NCBI GenBank assembly: GCA_964550695.1
Contig: CAZKCK010000001.1
Coordinates: 7,427 to 71,426 of the forward strand
Length of the DNA: 64,000 nt
Source: an uncultured Bacteroidales bacterium
GTDB taxonomy: Bacteria; Bacteroidota; Bacteroidia; Bacteroidales; TTA-H9
Direction of reading: 5' to 3'
Below, piece by piece: positions 55,711 to 64,000 of this stretch. The notes beneath the pieces are model-generated. The model was given only the letters and a program-made list of their open reading frames with translations. It was not told where the DNA came from and did no database searches. A program made the position numbers and the translations under genes. Every line of letters starts with the position of its first letter. The first letter of the stretch is position 1.

Positions 55711-56286
55711 TCAGAATCTGGCAGCAACAGACTCCCAATCAACCAGTTTCCAGAAATCGGCGATATAATCAGGCCTGCGGTTCTGCTTGTCGAGATAATA
55801 GGCATGTTCCCAAACATCGCAGGTTAGAAGCGGGGTTTTACCTGAACGCAAAGGGCAGCCGGCATTGCTTTCCTGCACAATTTCAAGTTTTCCGTCAGCA
55901 TTCTTCACCAGCCATGCCCAACCAGAGCCAAAAAGGGTGGCTGCTGCTGTGGAGAATTTTTCTTTAAAGGTTTCAAAAGAGCCAAATGCATCATCGATGG
56001 CTTCAGCAAGTTTACCCGATGGAACACCACCACCGTTTGGCTTCAGGCAATTCCAGTAAAAAGTATGGTTCCATACCTGAGCACCGTTATTAAAAATGCC
56101 TCCGGAGGCTTTCATGATGATTTCTTCGAGGGTGGCATTTTCAAATTCAGTTCCGGGTACGAGCTTGTTCAGGTTGGTTACGTACGCCTGATGGTGTTTA
56201 CCATAATGAAAATCAATTGTTTGTTTTGAGATGATTGGCGCAAGGGCATCCGGTGCCCAGGGCAGATGGGGTAATTCAAAGTTCAT
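55711..56286 (-). CDS. sodB: Fe/Mn superoxide dismutase
   Basis: The sequence [34 protein letters not shown]...[10 protein letters not shown] contains the metal-ligand His/Asp contexts. Length is 191 aa. Confidence 0.95.
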
Positions 56287-58436: not shown

Positions 58437-61400
58437 TTATTTAAATGCTTTTTCAAGCAAGCCATCACCTTTAAAACTTAGCCTGTCGAAATAAGAAGGA
58501 ACTGGTTTGCCACTTATTTTATCAACATACATTTTTGCCAGATATTGCCCCAGCATAAATCCCTGCCCGCGTAGTCCGGTGAACATTCCAAGTTCTGTAT
58601 CGAGGATCATGCGTGGCTCAACATAATATCCCGCCCAAACAGCCTGAAAGCCAACGGAAGAGAGTTCCGGCAGCCAGTCAACAAAAATTTCTGCAGAAAT
58701 CTCAAGAAATTCCTTTGAGTTTACCTTGAGGTTTGCGAATGTTTCTGCGGCATCCACTGCCGGTGATGCACAGCCGATAATCTGCCCGGTTTCAGCAAGC
58801 TGCTGACCATAAACAGCCACAAATCCCTTATAATTTCTGCGGTCGATAAGCATGGGCAGCTGAATGCCATCCACACCCAGCATGGGCAAGCGGCGGGTAA
58901 TAAAAGCCTGATGTTTTACTGCATATTGTCCGGTTTCAATTCCCAGCAGTCTGGCAAATTTTCCACCATCGGGTCCAAGTGCATTTATAAATATATCAGT
59001 ATGATATTCAACATATTGCTTGTCATGATTCTGAACAAGGATGATATACTTGCCATTTTCTTTTTTCAGGTCAATTAATTTACAGTCTTCGAGAATGGTA
59101 CCACCATTTTTTACACCGATCTGCCGGATGAGGTCAACAACACGGCCGGGTGTTGCCTGCCAGCAGTTATGTGTTATCAGTGCTGACTGATAAGTTTTAA
59201 GGTTTGTATTGAAGTAGGGTGAAATGCGTTTACGGAAATCACCCGGTGAAATCATTTCGGCATCTGACCAGGCCATCGAAGCTTCCAGTGCTTTGTACAT
59301 ATTGTCGTCATGTGCAAAGGTCACATAGTCAATAGGCCGGAAATCGATATTGCGGATTGTCTGTAATTCTTTAAAAATTTCAAGGTTTCTGACAGCAATT
59401 TCAGATAGTTCGGGAACGCTGAAGTTAGGTCTTCCCCCGGCTATATTGCGCCATGACGCACCCCGGCCCCAATTGATTAATAGCGGTTTTTTACCGGCTT
59501 CGGCCAGATACCTGAAAAGGGCGCTGCCACCAATACCTCCGCCAGCCACAAGTGATTCAACTTCAATTATTTTGGTTGAATGTTTGTGCCTGCATGCAAT
59601 AATGTTTTCGTGAACTGGCCGGGGATAGAGTTCACCCAAAGCCAATTGGTTCGAAAGCGGGCCACGTGGTGTGGCTTCTCCAACAACCGAGATTCCGAAG
59701 TCCCTGATTTTTTGTTTCAGGCGGGGGATGCACCGTTTACCACGGCAGGCCCCCATGCCCAAACGGGTAGTGTGTTTGATTTCATCTACTGAAATGAATT
59801 TGCGATCGCCGACAATATTCAGAATCTCATCCATTTTCACATCATCGCAGTGGCAAACATAGGTTTCTGAATGAAAATCCACATCTGCCGGTAATAGCTC
59901 AAAAGGTTCGGGATAACGGTCCCTGACGATAAAAGCCCGTGCTTTCATGAGGTCTTCGCCATGAAGTGTGATGGATTTTACCCTGGCAATATTTGTTTTA
60001 TTGGGTTTGCGCAGAATTTTCTCAATAATTCCTTCACCAAGTTTTTTCCCGAAATTGTCGACAAGAAACACTTCAGAATTTTCCTGAACTTCATATTCAA
60101 TGGGCAGGAAAAGCCAGTCTTTTTTAACGTTATATCCAAATATGGCCAGACCCGGGCATTGGTAAACACAATCCATACAACCAATACATTTATCAAAATC
60201 AATCTGAGGGATGGTACTGGTAGAAGTTTTGGTGATCGCGCCGTGCGGACATGCAAATTCACAGGGGTTACAGGCAAAACCATACAGGCAGTCGATCTGT
60301 ACAAAACCCTTGGCTTCGATACGTTGGCTGGACGGCCTGAAGGGTTCTTCAATAATTCGTGTAGGATGTTGCTGTGAATCAATGTATTCTTTTGAAATGG
60401 TAAGGTAATCTTCATATTTTACCCTTATGCCCATATCCATGAGTATTTCAAAGCCTACCTGCTTTCCACGCAAAACGGCACTTGTTCCTTCGCCAATTCT
60501 AATGGCATCACCGGCACCGAAGCACCGTCGGCCAAAAATTTCATTTCCCTTTATAAGCAACTGGTCATCAGGAACAAGTCCGGTACAAATGTTGATTGCA
60601 TCAATTCCTTCAATAATCGTTTCGGTTCCCGGGATGGGTTTGAAGTTTTCACATTTGGCAATTACTGCACCAATTATACCATCATTGTTTTGATTCGGAA
60701 TCGCTTTAAGCAAAATGTGGGACGTCAGCACCGGAATGCCCAATCGCCTTACTCTGTTTGCCTGAACCGGAAAACCACCTTCATGCGGTTGTGCTTCAAT
60801 AATTGCCTTTACATTTGCGCCTGCCTGCATCAATTGGTATGAAGTCAGGTAACCAATGTTGCCGGCCCCAACGGTAAGAATATTTTTGCCAAGTAAGGTG
60901 AATTCGCTGTTCATCATTTTTTGAACAACCGCAGCGGTATAAACCCCCGGAACGTCATCATTTTCGAAAGTAGGCATGAAAGGAACGGCTCCGGTAGCAA
61001 CTACAAGATACTCACAGTCAATGTAGTAAACTGTTTCGGTTACAATGTTTTTAAGCGCCAGCCTGTTGCCTTCCAGAATATCCCAAACGGTTGAATTCAG
61101 GAAAATCCCGTCAAGGTTTTCTCCGGCCAGTGTTTTGGCGATGTCAAATCCACGCATGCCGCCAAATTTCTTTTCTTTTTCAAAAAAGAAGAATTGATGT
61201 GTCTGCATCAGGAATTGTCCGCCAATTTTATCATTGTTATCAACAACTATGTTGTCAACGCCAAACTGGTTCAGCAATTCGCGGACAGCCAACCCTGCCG
61301 GCCCTGCACCAATAATTACCACATCAGTTTTATACACATCAATGGCATCCTGTTTTTTATAATCCGAAATTCCCGGATTGTAGTCGTGGGGAATTTCTGC

Positions 61401-61670
61401 AACTTCGTGTATATCATCAACCCTGGTGATACAAATTCGTTTAATCTGGCCATCGACCAGCATTTCACAGGCACCACATTTACCAATTCCACATTCAAGA
61501 CTGCGTTCACGATTCCGCAAACTATGGCTGTGAACCGGGAAACCGGCCTGATGAAGGGCGGCAGCTATGGTAAAGCCTTTTTCGCCTTTAATTATTTGTC
61601 CGTTAAAAGAAAAATTTATCTCATCTGGTTTGGGGATTTCCAGAATCGGATGATTTTCAATTTTATACAT
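58437..61670 (-). CDS. Multidomain flavo-iron-sulfur oxidoreductase: 2Fe-2S domain + pyridine-nucleotide-disulfide oxidoreductase + 2x[4Fe-4S] ferredoxin + BFD-like [2Fe-2S] + DAO-type FAD amine dehydrogenase (HcnA-HcnB-Fd-HcnC-like fusion)
   Basis: In N-to-C order:
- 2Fe-2S domain: SLECGIGKCGACEMLVDG...RICITRV.
- First dinucleotide fold: DVVIIGAGPAGLA.
- Second dinucleotide fold: ILTVGAGNIGYLTSYQL.
- Ferredoxin motifs: CNPCEFACPHGAI and CIGCMDCVYQCPGLAI.
- BFD-like motif: VCHCDDV...RLGMGACRGKRC.
- DAO-type dinucleotide fold: SLVAGGGIGGSALFRYLAEAG, followed by about 370 aa. Confidence 0.8.
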   Translation of the reverse strand: MYKIENHPILEIPKPDEINFSFNGQIIKGEKGFTIAAALHQAGFPVHSHSLRNRERSLECGIGKCGACEMLVDGQIKRICITRVDDIHEVAEIPHDYNPGISDYKKQDAIDVYKTDVVIIGAGPAGLAVRELLNQFGVDNIVVDNNDKIGGQFLMQTHQFFFFEKEKKFGGMRGFDIAKTLAGENLDGIFLNSTVWDILEGNRLALKNIVTETVYYIDCEYLVVATGAVPFMPTFENDDVPGVYTAAVVQKMMNSEFTLLGKNILTVGAGNIGYLTSYQLMQAGANVKAIIEAQPHEGGFPVQANRVRRLGIPVLTSHILLKAIPNQNNDGIIGAVIAKCENFKPIPGTETIIEGIDAINICTGLVPDDQLLIKGNEIFGRRCFGAGDAIRIGEGTSAVLRGKQVGFEILMDMGIRVKYEDYLTISKEYIDSQQHPTRIIEEPFRPSSQRIEAKGFVQIDCLYGFACNPCEFACPHGAITKTSTSTIPQIDFDKCIGCMDCVYQCPGLAIFGYNVKKDWLFLPIEYEVQENSEVFLVDNFGKKLGEGIIEKILRKPNKTNIARVKSITLHGEDLMKARAFIVRDRYPEPFELLPADVDFHSETYVCHCDDVKMDEILNIVGDRKFISVDEIKHTTRLGMGACRGKRCIPRLKQKIRDFGISVVGEATPRGPLSNQLALGELYPRPVHENIIACRHKHSTKIIEVESLVAGGGIGGSALFRYLAEAGKKPLLINWGRGASWRNIAGGRPNFSVPELSEIAVRNLEIFKELQTIRNIDFRPIDYVTFAHDDNMYKALEASMAWSDAEMISPGDFRKRISPYFNTNLKTYQSALITHNCWQATPGRVVDLIRQIGVKNGGTILEDCKLIDLKKENGKYIILVQNHDKQYVEYHTDIFINALGPDGGKFARLLGIETGQYAVKHQAFITRRLPMLGVDGIQLPMLIDRRNYKGFVAVYGQQLAETGQIIGCASPAVDAAETFANLKVNSKEFLEISAEIFVDWLPELSSVGFQAVWAGYYVEPRMILDTELGMFTGLRGQGFMLGQYLAKMYVDKISGKPVPSYFDRLSFKGDGLLEKAFK

Positions 61671-61729
61671 GATTGTCGATTGAGTTGATTGTTGGTGTTA
61701 TCTGAAAAACATTGTTATGAAATTCACAG

Positions 61730-61737
61730 CAAAATTA
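61730..61737 (-). promoter_or_regulatory. Bacteroidota -7 promoter box TAATTTTG (minus strand)
   Basis: TAnnTTTG match on the minus strand, 59 nt upstream of the 61670 start. Confidence 0.4.
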
Positions 61738-61914
61738 GGGGAATTCAGCTTATCCGCTGCCAGATTTAGTTTTTTTTATAGTCATATGAAAAATCTCTGC
61801 AGGCAATTCAGTATTTCCGACCGTGTACGCAAAACGGTTTTCCGGCAATGAATCTCACAGATAAACAATTAAAGAAAAATTTTAGTAATTCAGGGTTGTT
61901 GTTATAAAAAACAT

Positions 61915-61922
61915 TACGTTTG
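61915..61922 (+). promoter_or_regulatory. Bacteroidota -7 promoter box TACGTTTG
   Basis: TAnnTTTG match 18 nt upstream of the proline dehydrogenase ATG. Confidence 0.5.
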
Positions 61923-61940
61923 TTATAGATTTTAATAGAT

Positions 61941-63107
61941 ATGATAGATTTCAGCAACACCAAAATCGCTTTTGGCAGCCGTTCAGATTCTGATCTGCGA
62001 AGGGCCTGGTTTCTTTTTAAAACAATTGCAAATCCGCATCTTGTAAAGATTGGAAACAGGGTAACCGGTTGGGCTGTTAAAACCGGGTTTCCGGTAAACT
62101 GGGCCGTTAAACCAACCATTTATGCACATTTTGTTGGCGGTGAATCTATTGAGCAATGTGAAAAAGCTGTAGATAGCCTGGCAAAGTTCCGAGTTCATGC
62201 AATTCTTGACTATTCGGTTGAGGGCAAACACAGTGAAGACGATATCAGGGCTGTAATGAATGAAACAATCAGGTCAATTGCCAATGCAGGTAAAAATCCG
62301 AATATTCCGTTCGCAGTTTTTAAACCCACAGCCTTTGCTGACGTGCAGGCACTTGAAAAAGCTTCACTGGGTAAAACCCTTACACCGGATGAACAACAGG
62401 AGACAATCGTGTTCAGGGAGCGTGTGCATACCCTTTGCAAGGCCGCGTCAGATGCCGGAATTCCAATCTTGATTGATGCAGAAGACAGCTGGTATCAGAA
62501 ATTTATTGATGATACTGTTGAGGAAATGATGCAGGTATTCAATCAAAAGAAAGCGGTGGTTTTTAACACGCTGCAGATGTACAGGCACGACAGGCTTGAA
62601 TTCCTGAAACTTATGCACGAAAAGGCCGTAAAAGGAAATTATTTTCTGGGAGTGAAGTTTGTTCGTGGGGCGTATATGGAAAAGGAACGCGAAAGGGCAT
62701 TGAAAATGAATTATCCGTCACCTATACAGCACGATAAAGAGGCTACTGATCGTGATTTTGACCAAGCGCTTACTTTTTGTTTGCGTAACTTACAGAATAT
62801 AAGTGTTTTTTGTGGTACGCACAACGAAAAAAGTTGTCAGCACCTTGTAGATCTGATGCAACATAATGGAATCCAAATAAATGACAACCGGATATGGTTC
62901 TCACAGTTGTATGGAATGAGCGACCACATAAGTTTTAATCTTGCACATGCCGGATACAATGTAGCCAAATACGTTCCTTATGGTCCCGTAAAACATGTAT
63001 TGCCCTATCTGAGCCGGAGGGCCGAAGAAAATACTTCCGTGGCCGGACAAACCGGACGCGAGTTGAGACTGATTGAAAAAGAACGGAAAAGACGTAAAAA
63101 AGAATAA
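61941..63107 (+). CDS. Monofunctional proline dehydrogenase (PutA catalytic-barrel type)
   Basis: The sequence IYAHFVGGE...ILDYSVEG...LIDAEDSWYQ...VKFVRGAYMEKE...GTHNE...FSQLYGMSD...KYVPYGP...LPYLSRRAEEN carries the ProDH TIM-barrel signatures. Length is 388 aa. Confidence 0.88.
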   Translation: MIDFSNTKIAFGSRSDSDLRRAWFLFKTIANPHLVKIGNRVTGWAVKTGFPVNWAVKPTIYAHFVGGESIEQCEKAVDSLAKFRVHAILDYSVEGKHSEDDIRAVMNETIRSIANAGKNPNIPFAVFKPTAFADVQALEKASLGKTLTPDEQQETIVFRERVHTLCKAASDAGIPILIDAEDSWYQKFIDDTVEEMMQVFNQKKAVVFNTLQMYRHDRLEFLKLMHEKAVKGNYFLGVKFVRGAYMEKERERALKMNYPSPIQHDKEATDRDFDQALTFCLRNLQNISVFCGTHNEKSCQHLVDLMQHNGIQINDNRIWFSQLYGMSDHISFNLAHAGYNVAKYVPYGPVKHVLPYLSRRAEENTSVAGQTGRELRLIEKERKRRKKE

Positions 63108-63156
63108 TAATCCTCCCGGTAATACGGGAAAAGCATTTATTTCAATATTCAAACAA

Positions 63157-64000
63157 ATGAAACATAAATTAATTTCTATTCTTGTAATGATTGTTCTTGC
63201 CGGTACTGCCTCAGGGCAGTGGAGTACCAATCCGGCAGTGAACAACATTATCTGCAACCTTACAGGTGAGCAGGCCATACCCAAAGTTGCGGTTTGCCCC
63301 AATGGTGACATTTACATCGCTTATTTTTCCAACGATGCGGGAAATTATGACGTAAGACTGCAACGGCTCGATAGTCAGGGAAATATACAATGGGCCAGCA
63401 ATGGCATCCTTATCAGCGGAAATCCCCAGGAAACCTGGCTTACCGACTGGGACATGACCGCCGACCCTTCAAACCATTGCATACTTACCTTTAATGATAT
63501 CCGGAACGGCAACACCAATGTGTATGGATACCGAATTTCGCCCTCTGGTAGTTTTGTATGGGGTCCCAATGGAATTGCATTATCAAACAATTCTTCATTT
63601 AATGCGGCACCCAAGGTAATAGCCACTTCGGCCGGCAATGTTGTATGTGCCTGGATGTCAGATGCCGTGATTATTATGCAAAAAGTTTCACCCACAGGCA
63701 CATTGCAATGGGGCCCGTCGGGTATTACCCTTAGTTCGGTTAACACGCTTTCATGGCCACAGATGATTCCTGTGGGTACGGATGATTTTTATATGAAATA
63801 TTACGATGACAGTGGTCCGGGATGGTCACCAACCCGCCATGTATTTCTGAAACGATTTAATGCGTCCGGTACAGCAGTGTGGGCCTCACCCGCAACTATT
63901 TCAACCGCCGGAGGTATTTCAGCACAGACCCAGATTCTGCCTTTTATCAAGGATGACAATGACGGAGTATACATTGCCTGGGATGATGACCGTGATAACA
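63157..64000 (+). CDS. Secreted repeat (beta-propeller-like) protein, 3' end cut by window edge
   Basis: Not in the ORF track because it has no stop in the window. The ATG at 63157 gives MKHKLISILVMIVLAGTASGQWSTNP..., a signal peptide. Then come about four repeats of roughly 55-60 aa, each containing a G-x-x-x-W-(A/G)-x-x-G/A motif (QGNIQWASNGILIS, SGSFVWGPNGIALS, TGTLQWGPSGITLS, SGTAVWASPATIST). Confidence 0.7.
   Translation, partial: MKHKLISILVMIVLAGTASGQWSTNPAVNNIICNLTGEQAIPKVAVCPNGDIYIAYFSNDAGNYDVRLQRLDSQGNIQWASNGILISGNPQETWLTDWDMTADPSNHCILTFNDIRNGNTNVYGYRISPSGSFVWGPNGIALSNNSSFNAAPKVIATSAGNVVCAWMSDAVIIMQKVSPTGTLQWGPSGITLSSVNTLSWPQMIPVGTDDFYMKYYDDSGPGWSPTRHVFLKRFNASGTAVWASPATISTAGGISAQTQILPFIKDDNDGVYIAWDDDRDN

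Follow-up and report, generated by a model that had tools for sequence, protein, structure and literature searches.

A single-chain relative of archaeal proline dehydrogenase complexes, common in Bacteroidales and with genomic ties to proline metabolism

Introduction

The dye-linked L-proline dehydrogenases of the Thermococcales include the alpha4beta4 enzyme PH1363/PH1364 of Pyrococcus horikoshii (structure 1Y56) and the alpha-beta-gamma-delta complex PdhA/F/X/B of Thermococcus profundus. In T. litoralis the genes form a cluster in the order pdhA-pdhF-pdhX-pdhB (PMC4364671). The archaeal complex is grouped in one superfamily with the hydrogen cyanide (HCN) synthase HcnABC, the flavin-containing opine dehydrogenases and the D-hydroxyproline dehydrogenase LhpBEF, and these last three share a branch of the DAO superfamily (PMC4575208). 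Here we describe a bacterial protein in which modules of such a complex are fused into one chain. Its gene lies on the minus strand, at positions 58437–61670, of a 64,000-nucleotide stretch (hereafter the window) of contig CAZKCK010000001.1 from an uncultured Bacteroidales bacterium (assembly GCA_964550695.1, referred to below as G000), next to a divergent gene for a PutA-type proline dehydrogenase (ProDH).

That the fusion belongs, as a single chain, with archaeal ProDH, HcnABC and opine dehydrogenase is near certain, because its architecture, its invariant cofactor sites and its kinship all place it there. As to function, we put a probability of roughly 0.55 on its being a self-contained L-proline/delta-1-pyrroline-5-carboxylate (P5C) oxidoreductase, linked to nicotinamide adenine dinucleotide (NAD(H)) and Fe-S clusters, and probably catabolic.

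Results and Discussion

Five modules in one chain

The gene is a single open reading frame (ORF) that starts with ATG and translates into 1077 amino acids without an internal stop; its coordinates include the stop codon. The original prediction had recognised five modules in it, and Pfam profile searches back each of them, in the order proposed. The N-terminal [2Fe-2S] module (Fer2_4, residues 17–90; 61401–61622, on the minus strand like all that follow; E 3.3e-10) has C60, C65, C68 and C80 as its ligands, which are invariant in all 28 alignment rows covering it. Next comes a two-Rossmann flavoprotein module (Pyr_redox_2, residues 116–372; 60555–61325; E 7e-20). Judged by its residues, GAGPAG together with D144, which closes the first Rossmann strand, fits a site for flavin adenine dinucleotide (FAD), and GAGNIG together with E292 fits a putative NAD(H) site, the second Rossmann strand ending in this acidic residue as in binders of NAD(H) or adenosine.

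An inserted 2x[4Fe-4S] ferredoxin module (residues 461–510; 60141–60290) follows, with the motifs C-x5-C-x2-C-x3-CP and CxxCxxCxxxCP. Its Pfam scores over residues 466–510 are barely above the cut-offs (Fer4 24.4 bits, Fer4_7 27.2 bits; E 2e-5 to 6e-6), and its top named matches are ferredoxin modules of the OorD, PorD and RnfB type. The BFD-like [2Fe-2S] module (Fer2_BFD, residues 604–653; 59712–59861; E 1.5e-7) has the ligands C606, C608, C642 and C647, and the stretch around it (residues 574–661) resembles the BFD part of GlpA (TIGR03377). The chain ends in a DAO-fold FAD dehydrogenase module (residues 707–1049; 58524–59552; E 1.3e-27), which is presumed to hold the substrate site. The motifs by which the modules were first recognised are all found in the translation: CGIGKCGACEM (residues 60–70), RIC (78–80), GAGPAGLA (121–128), GAGNIGY (268–274), CNPCEFACP (467–475), CIGCMDCVYQCP (495–506), CHCDDV (606–611), GACRGKRC (640–647) and GGGIGGSALF (710–719).

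Conservation of these sites was followed in an alignment of 33 sequences that reaches out to protist homologues at about 26% identity. No substitution occurs at the 16 cluster cysteines (four of Fer2_4, eight of the [4Fe-4S] pair and four of BFD), in either GxGxxG motif, or at D144 and E292, in any row with coverage there. The AlphaFold2 model of the fusion has a predicted local distance difference test score (pLDDT) of 80.4 and a predicted template modelling score (pTM) of 0.69.

Relationship to archaeal proline dehydrogenase

Searched as a whole, the protein matches SoxA (2gag_A) and both chains of the P. horikoshii enzyme. A profile built from the family matches the beta chain 1y56_B (PH1364) at E 1.4e-52 and the alpha chain 1y56_A (PH1363) at E 3.1e-34 (Foldseek E 2.6e-21), and more weakly SoxA (8.4e-29), dimethylglycine dehydrogenase and glycine oxidase (about 1e-20), SoxB (9e-16) and glycerophosphate oxidase (2e-9). 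The DAO segment alone has 1y56_B as its sole single-sequence match in the Protein Data Bank (E 2.7e-6), aligned from end to end (residues 16–366 of 388), and the same chain is ranked first for the AlphaFold2 model by Foldseek (TM 0.79) and by VIA (Z 38.4, 22% identity). ESM Atlas returned just generic DAO cluster names for the fusion. Profile, sequence, Foldseek and VIA searches agree, then, with the kinship to archaeal ProDH that had been proposed, the closest solved relatives being both P. horikoshii chains; HCN synthase, opine oxidase and sarcosine oxidase, named as comparators alongside it, appear to be farther from the fusion. The modules are indeed those of the HcnABC, opine dehydrogenase and archaeal ProDH complexes, fused in operon order, as seen on plasmid pTiBo542 and in T. 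litoralis. The pTiBo542 operon runs from the 2Fe-2S gene through the alpha gene to the beta gene, and this order also held in Microvirga, which we examined as well.

A DAO-domain tree gives the Bacteroidales clade, together with a stand-alone relative of 465 amino acids, a stem about 5.8 changes per site long. The Bacteroidales domain falls outside a clade of ProDH-beta-like proteins that stand alone, about 383 amino acids in length, from Thermoplasmatota, Asgard archaea and Desulfobacterales, one of which (P0290) matches 1y56_B at 4.6e-49; the fused DAO domains of Carpediemonas and Chilomastix nest among these proteins. Six polar or cysteine positions are common to the fusion and the ProDH-beta-like proteins: R747, H920, Y954, C967 and Y1016, which are invariant across the alignment, and Q957, present in 31 of its 33 rows. 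H920, Y954, C967 and Y1016 differ in the opine dehydrogenase beta subunit of pTiBo542. Counted over all conserved columns of the ProDH-beta-like proteins, the fusion retains 47 of 140.

Distribution of the fusion

We sampled the order evenly, with at most two genomes per family, and found the fusion full-length, in single copy and without stops in 91 of 201 Bacteroidales genomes (57–82% identity), which span 73 of the 160 genera. Across a phylum-wide sample of 251 genomes it occurs in just one besides G000. A search of 5.8 billion proteins gave more than 2500 matches, and the best 120 of these are 1063–1102 amino acids long, 74–90% identical, all from Bacteroidales or from metagenome-assembled genomes of Bacteroidota, and named merely "FAD-dependent oxidoreductase" or "ferredoxin". 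A relative turns up in 587 or more species-representative genomes, some of which are complete chromosomes. The cultured Parabacteroides distasonis carries the fusion as an isolated gene flanked by unrelated genes; it belongs to a 63%-identity cluster and is annotated "FAD-dependent oxidoreductase", the P. distasonis orthologue being WP_048927274.1. The fusion is no rarity; it is common in Bacteroidales and already present in databases under a generic name. Our literature searches found no paper on the Bacteroidales fusion protein.

The same distribution disposes of the suspicion that so long a frame is an assembly or sequencing artefact joining several genes, an explanation to which we give practically no credence. 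An uninterrupted frame of 1074–1080 amino acids recurs in these 587 or more species-representative genomes, including complete chromosomes, and cultured P. distasonis has the same fusion; this recurrence rules the artefact out.

Association with genes of proline metabolism

Raw counts of proline genes in the same 201 genomes set the fusion-carrying ones apart. P5C dehydrogenase (P5CDH, TIGR01236) is present in 77/91 genomes with the fusion and 52/110 without it (odds ratio 6.1). ProC (11/91 versus 73/110; odds ratio 0.07) and ProA (4/91 versus 63/110; odds ratio 0.03) show the opposite pattern, and 80 of the 117 ProC-less genomes carry the fusion. ProDH (PF01619) is found in 65/91 and 65/110 genomes, respectively (odds ratio 1.7, p 0.08), leaving 26 of the 91 fusion genomes without any PF01619 gene.

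The link to P5CDH is clearest where ProDH is missing. Among the 71 ProDH-less genomes, P5CDH occurs in 18 of the 26 that carry the fusion, from 13 families, versus 5 of the other 45 (odds ratio 18); p stays at about 0.002 when the genomes are counted conservatively by family. Seen from the other side, 18 of the 23 P5CDH genomes that lack ProDH carry the fusion, and 124 of all 129 P5CDH genomes carry ProDH or the fusion. Two main proline types can be seen in the order: in 52 genomes the fusion occurs together with ProDH and P5CDH, and neither ProA nor ProC is present, and 32 have ProA and ProC with none of the other three. G000 itself (95.8% complete) yielded no ProA, ProC or ornithine cyclodeaminase (OCD), and looks like a proline consumer without a known proline-making route. 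OCD was tried as a discriminator between a catabolic and a biosynthetic role and proved uninformative, as it is present in 24% of ProC-less genomes whether or not they have the fusion.

Gene order was compared in 80 related loci, taking up to 8 kb on either side. No neighbour is conserved in more than a third of them, and the commonest are the housekeeping genes yceD, plsX, fabH and glmS. ProDH directly adjoins the fusion in 18/80 loci, in three arrangements that involve two ProDH subfamilies. The type of 388 amino acids is divergent from the fusion in locus L008, and likewise in the window, in G001 and in G004; the type of 303 amino acids is divergent in 5 loci and convergent just downstream in 12. 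P5CDH lies 245 bp upstream of the fusion on the same strand in genome G106, and 2.4–6 kb upstream in 8/80 loci. Linkage to ProDH, which the original prediction had made a feature of the locus, is not conserved across the family, since adjacency is limited to 18 of the 80 loci and to 3 of the 65 order-sample genomes that have both genes. The accompanying guess that the substrate is related to proline fares better, gaining support from the P5CDH link both across genomes and in gene order.

Proposed reaction and alternative explanations

The analysis establishes the architecture of the fusion, the conservation of its cofactor sites, its relationship to archaeal ProDH and its co-occurrence with P5CDH; we infer what it acts on, in which direction it works, how the cofactors follow one another in the wire and which partner outside the chain takes or gives electrons. 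At the C-terminal DAO-fold FAD domain an imino acid would be oxidised at its C5-N bond, the most likely reaction being that of L-proline to P5C. Electrons would then pass singly along the BFD-type [2Fe-2S] cluster and the pair of [4Fe-4S] clusters and arrive at the FAD of the two-Rossmann module, where hydride could be exchanged with NAD(H), and the N-terminal [2Fe-2S] cluster might serve as an additional entry or exit port. P5C would be passed to a separate P5CDH and turned into glutamate. The proline/P5C couple is the best-supported substrate because P5CDH is kept almost only together with ProDH or the fusion, and because several independent arrangements place the fusion next to P5CDH or ProDH. 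We favour the oxidative direction, since the characterised homologues are catabolic and the positive link is to P5CDH; moreover, genomes lacking ProA and ProC also exist without the fusion, so that their proline supply can be explained without it.

Several observations weigh against this assignment. Fold comparison cannot separate ProDH beta from sarcosine and glycine oxidases (VIA Z 38.4 versus 37.4 and 36.3). The DAO domain is very divergent, scoring 29.5 bits against 1y56_B when taken alone, and the segment matched no NCBIfam family at E 1e-3; given the long stem and these weak scores, a change of substrate is possible. Co-occurrence with ProDH is weak, at the odds ratio of 1.7 given above, and the raw genome counts ignore shared ancestry. 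The near-exclusive distribution of the fusion and ProA or ProC would suit a biosynthetic P5C reductase as well. On the acceptor side, the proline/P5C couple lies near -120 mV, which makes plain reduction of NAD+ by proline an uphill reaction.

The divergence of the DAO domain lends itself to an explanation in which architecture and wire are unchanged and the substrate is another one, such as hydroxyproline, D-proline, sarcosine or another N-alkyl amino acid, a D-amino acid or an opine-like compound. Besides the very long stem of the Bacteroidales clade, the small share of ProDH-beta-like columns retained and the missing NCBIfam match, it draws on the 14 of 91 fusion genomes without TIGR01236 P5CDH and on superfamily relatives that are known to have switched substrate (PMC4575208). 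We nevertheless consider it unlikely, as the polar residues common to ProDH-beta-like proteins are invariant, the gene is repeatedly adjacent to two ProDH subfamilies, and the association with P5CDH in genomes and gene order suggests a product that P5CDH accepts. Oxidation of D-proline or D-hydroxyproline would give pyrroline-2-carboxylates, which P5CDH is not known to accept. Somewhat more doubtful is operation in reverse, in which the protein would reduce P5C with NADH and so provide proline where ProC is absent, and in which a ferredoxin branch might permit flavin-based electron bifurcation (from NADH to P5C and ferredoxin). The scarcity of ProC and ProA in fusion genomes and the large share of ProC-less genomes that carry the fusion fit such a role, as do the lack of ProA, ProC and OCD in G000, the contrasts within three families (f7, f63 and f64) that couple presence of the fusion with absence of ProC, and a predicted NAD(H) site adjoining two diverging Fe-S branches; distant relatives of the N-terminal 700 residues, too, are fused to a flavodoxin, to MvhD/FlpD with polyferredoxin, or to a GltD-like module. 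Yet ProA is absent as well, so that the usual source of P5C is gone; OCD frequency does not differ between genomes that have the fusion and those that lack it; the gene positively linked to the fusion is P5CDH, a catabolic one; and the homologous archaeal enzymes are catabolic dehydrogenases. In addition, 28 of the 37 genomes without ProC and without the fusion also lack OCD, and proline auxotrophy or an unknown route must therefore be common in the order even where there is no fusion.

A bolder proposal, which we regard as speculative and improbable, is that the fusion is a single-chain flavin-based bifurcating or confurcating proline/P5C:NAD(H):ferredoxin oxidoreductase. The two-Rossmann FAD would take a hydride from NADH and split the electron pair between two branches, of which the high-potential one would lead over the BFD cluster and the DAO flavin to P5C and the low-potential one over the 2x[4Fe-4S] module to ferredoxin or flavodoxin. 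Coupling to ferredoxin as such may be suggested by the predicted NAD(H)-binding flavin between the 2Fe-2S and 2x[4Fe-4S] branches and by the fusions of the N-terminal 700 residues. If bifurcation were true, running the enzyme in reverse would enable strict anaerobes to use NAD+ for proline oxidation at the cost of reduced ferredoxin, and in the forward direction the enzyme could replace ProC in the many Bacteroidales without it. Glycerol-3-phosphate dehydrogenases of the type of Thermococcus GlpTk-NOX-MOX or of the fused Giardia enzyme also combine a DAO-superfamily dehydrogenase, BFD and Pyr_redox_2, and are fused in anaerobic protists (PMC11962113, PMC4450592); the resemblance of the BFD stretch to GlpA points the same way. 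In the Giardia enzyme, a GlpA-like part (TIGR03377, residues 31–510) is followed by Pyr_redox_2 and DUF1667 (PMC4450592), whereas the fusion has the reverse order (2Fe-2S, reductase, ferredoxin, BFD, DAO) and no DUF1667 among its Pfam matches at E 0.01. TIGR03377 reaches 41.5 bits against a cut-off of 552.8, from the BFD stretch alone with the DAO part unmatched, and the family profile finds glycerophosphate oxidase at 2e-9 as compared with 1.4e-52 for ProDH beta. We regard this identity as highly improbable and have set it aside for its other domain order, the absence of a GlpA-like catalytic domain and the absence of DUF1667. An L-proline/P5C oxidoreductase, probably acting in the oxidative direction, remains our preferred reading.

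Genomic neighbourhood

In the window, the divergent ProDH gene (61941–63107, plus strand) encodes a monofunctional TIM-barrel enzyme of 388 amino acids that matches PF01619 at E 1.8e-78 (profile positions 2–276 of 278). The 270 bp between the two genes (61671–61940) contain TAnnTTTG boxes at 61730–61737 (minus) and 61915–61922 (plus). These are present and suitably placed, as had been noted, but carry no statistical weight, the window containing 64 such boxes against 75 expected. No notable palindrome was found in the spacer. As originally stated, the window holds no aldehyde dehydrogenase or P5CDH gene; the four Aldedh genes of G000 are on other contigs, and two of them, on C49 and C231, are TIGR01236 P5CDHs (761 and 786 bits).

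Downstream of the fusion, and on the same strand, lie yceD, fabH, a gene for an Fe/Mn superoxide dismutase (SOD), a thioesterase gene and then glmS. The SOD gene (55711–56286, minus strand) is 2.1 kb downstream of the fusion. In the comparison of 80 loci an Fe/Mn SOD gene occurs within 8 kb of the fusion in 18, and in eight (L015, L028, L030, L034, L042, L047, L056 and L076) it follows the fusion co-directionally after 53–204 bp, often with a nitroreductase-family gene convergent on the pair. G341 has an AhpC/TSA-like gene 1 kb downstream of the fusion. These SOD, nitroreductase and AhpC-like neighbours may tie the role of the enzyme to oxygen exposure. At the edge of the window an ORF of more than 309 amino acids (63073–63999, plus strand) runs past the window end; it has no Pfam match and, from an internal Met followed by a signal-peptide-like hydrophobic stretch, may encode a secreted protein.

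Significance

A large enzyme with seven predicted cofactor sites is present in about half of the sampled Bacteroidales, from the gut species P. distasonis to many environmental lineages, and is very strongly conserved, yet "FAD-dependent oxidoreductase" is its sole name. Should it prove to be the order's anaerobic proline/P5C oxidoreductase, genome-based models would gain a missing piece, namely in 18 of the 23 sampled P5CDH-positive genomes that have no ProDH. The fusion marks a sharp split in the order between genomes with the fusion, P5CDH and often ProDH, and those with ProA and ProC. As a single-chain form of a four-subunit archaeal complex it should be convenient for structural and electrochemical work, and it would allow testing whether the widespread Fe-S flavoprotein module of 700 amino acids bifurcates electrons.

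Comparison with known systems

Fused homologues with an identical module order and all Cys ligands kept are found in the anaerobic protists Carpediemonas membranifera (KAG9389563.1) and Chilomastix cuspidata and in metagenomes. They are 26–29% identical to the Bacteroidales fusion and are likewise uncharacterised. Our protist set comprises the five-module proteins P0141 (C. membranifera) and P0161 (C. cuspidata), and P0143 of Cantina marsupialis, which has 711 amino acids and matches residues 3–663 of the fusion only. The full fusions of protists, whose DAO domains group with archaeal and deltaproteobacterial stand-alone proteins, are candidates for gene transfer into eukaryotes.

The N-terminal 700 residues (Fer2_4, Pyr_redox_2, Fer4 and BFD) also occur as a stand-alone protein, and split forms of 700 and 465 amino acids exist (P0142, P0137). 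Other relatives of this part, among P0140, P0149, P0165 and P0142–P0153, are fused to a flavodoxin, to a block of Fer2, polyferredoxin and FlpD/MvhD, or to a GltD-like unit of Fer4_20 and Pyr_redox_2. These combinations hint at a general low-potential electron-transfer module. One Bacteroidales genome without the fusion (G188, contig C139, 6612–8714, plus strand) has a relative 30% identical to residues 2–702, in a frame of 1292 amino acids that is interrupted by one TAA and by TGA at two in-frame positions. The gene could be broken, or it could encode a selenoprotein and have an extra break.

Heterotetrameric sarcosine oxidase (SoxABGD) shares parts of the architecture, as the N-terminal 370 residues of the fusion align with SoxA (E 8.4e-29) and its DAO domain with SoxB (E 9e-16, Z 37.4). 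The folate-binding C-terminal half of SoxA is absent from the fusion, with TIGR01372 scoring 72.7 bits against a cut-off of 1164 and covering 168–390 of its 996 positions, and sarcosine oxidase, unlike the fusion, is without Fe-S clusters. HcnABC, the flavin-containing opine dehydrogenases (OoxAB/NoxAB, OdhABC) and LhpBEF consist of a small 2Fe-2S protein, a Pyr_redox_2 alpha subunit with BFD and a DAO beta subunit, in the same order as in the fusion. They are made of separate subunits, some of them reportedly membrane-associated, whereas the fusion is one chain, and to our knowledge they have no 2x[4Fe-4S] ferredoxin insert detectable by Pfam. At the sequence level the DAO domain resembles the opine dehydrogenase beta genes of Ti plasmids only weakly (23–24% identity, tblastn E 1e-3 to 7e-7).

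The closest parallel is with the archaeal ProDH complex. The domain order of the fusion follows the gene order pdhA-pdhF-pdhX-pdhB (PMC4364671). Like the archaeal alpha subunit, the fusion has an N-terminal domain, a dinucleotide-fold body and then a Cys-rich domain, here with the BFD Cys cluster, and its Fer4 and BFD modules, compared by position, sit at the operon places of pdhF and pdhX. Its tie to P5C metabolism is consistent with the same reaction. The differences are that the archaeal enzymes have two or four subunits where the fusion is one conserved chain of 1077 amino acids; that the fusion is bacterial and mesophilic, comes from anaerobes and has a full [2Fe-2S] site in its N-terminal domain; and that its DAO domain, on a very long branch, is merely about 22% identical to archaeal ProDH beta. 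The kind of enzyme is known, and the fusion family was already in databases, unnamed and uncharacterised. What is new is the single-chain form in anaerobic bacteria, its confinement to one order, its divergent catalytic domain and its genomic ties to proline metabolism.

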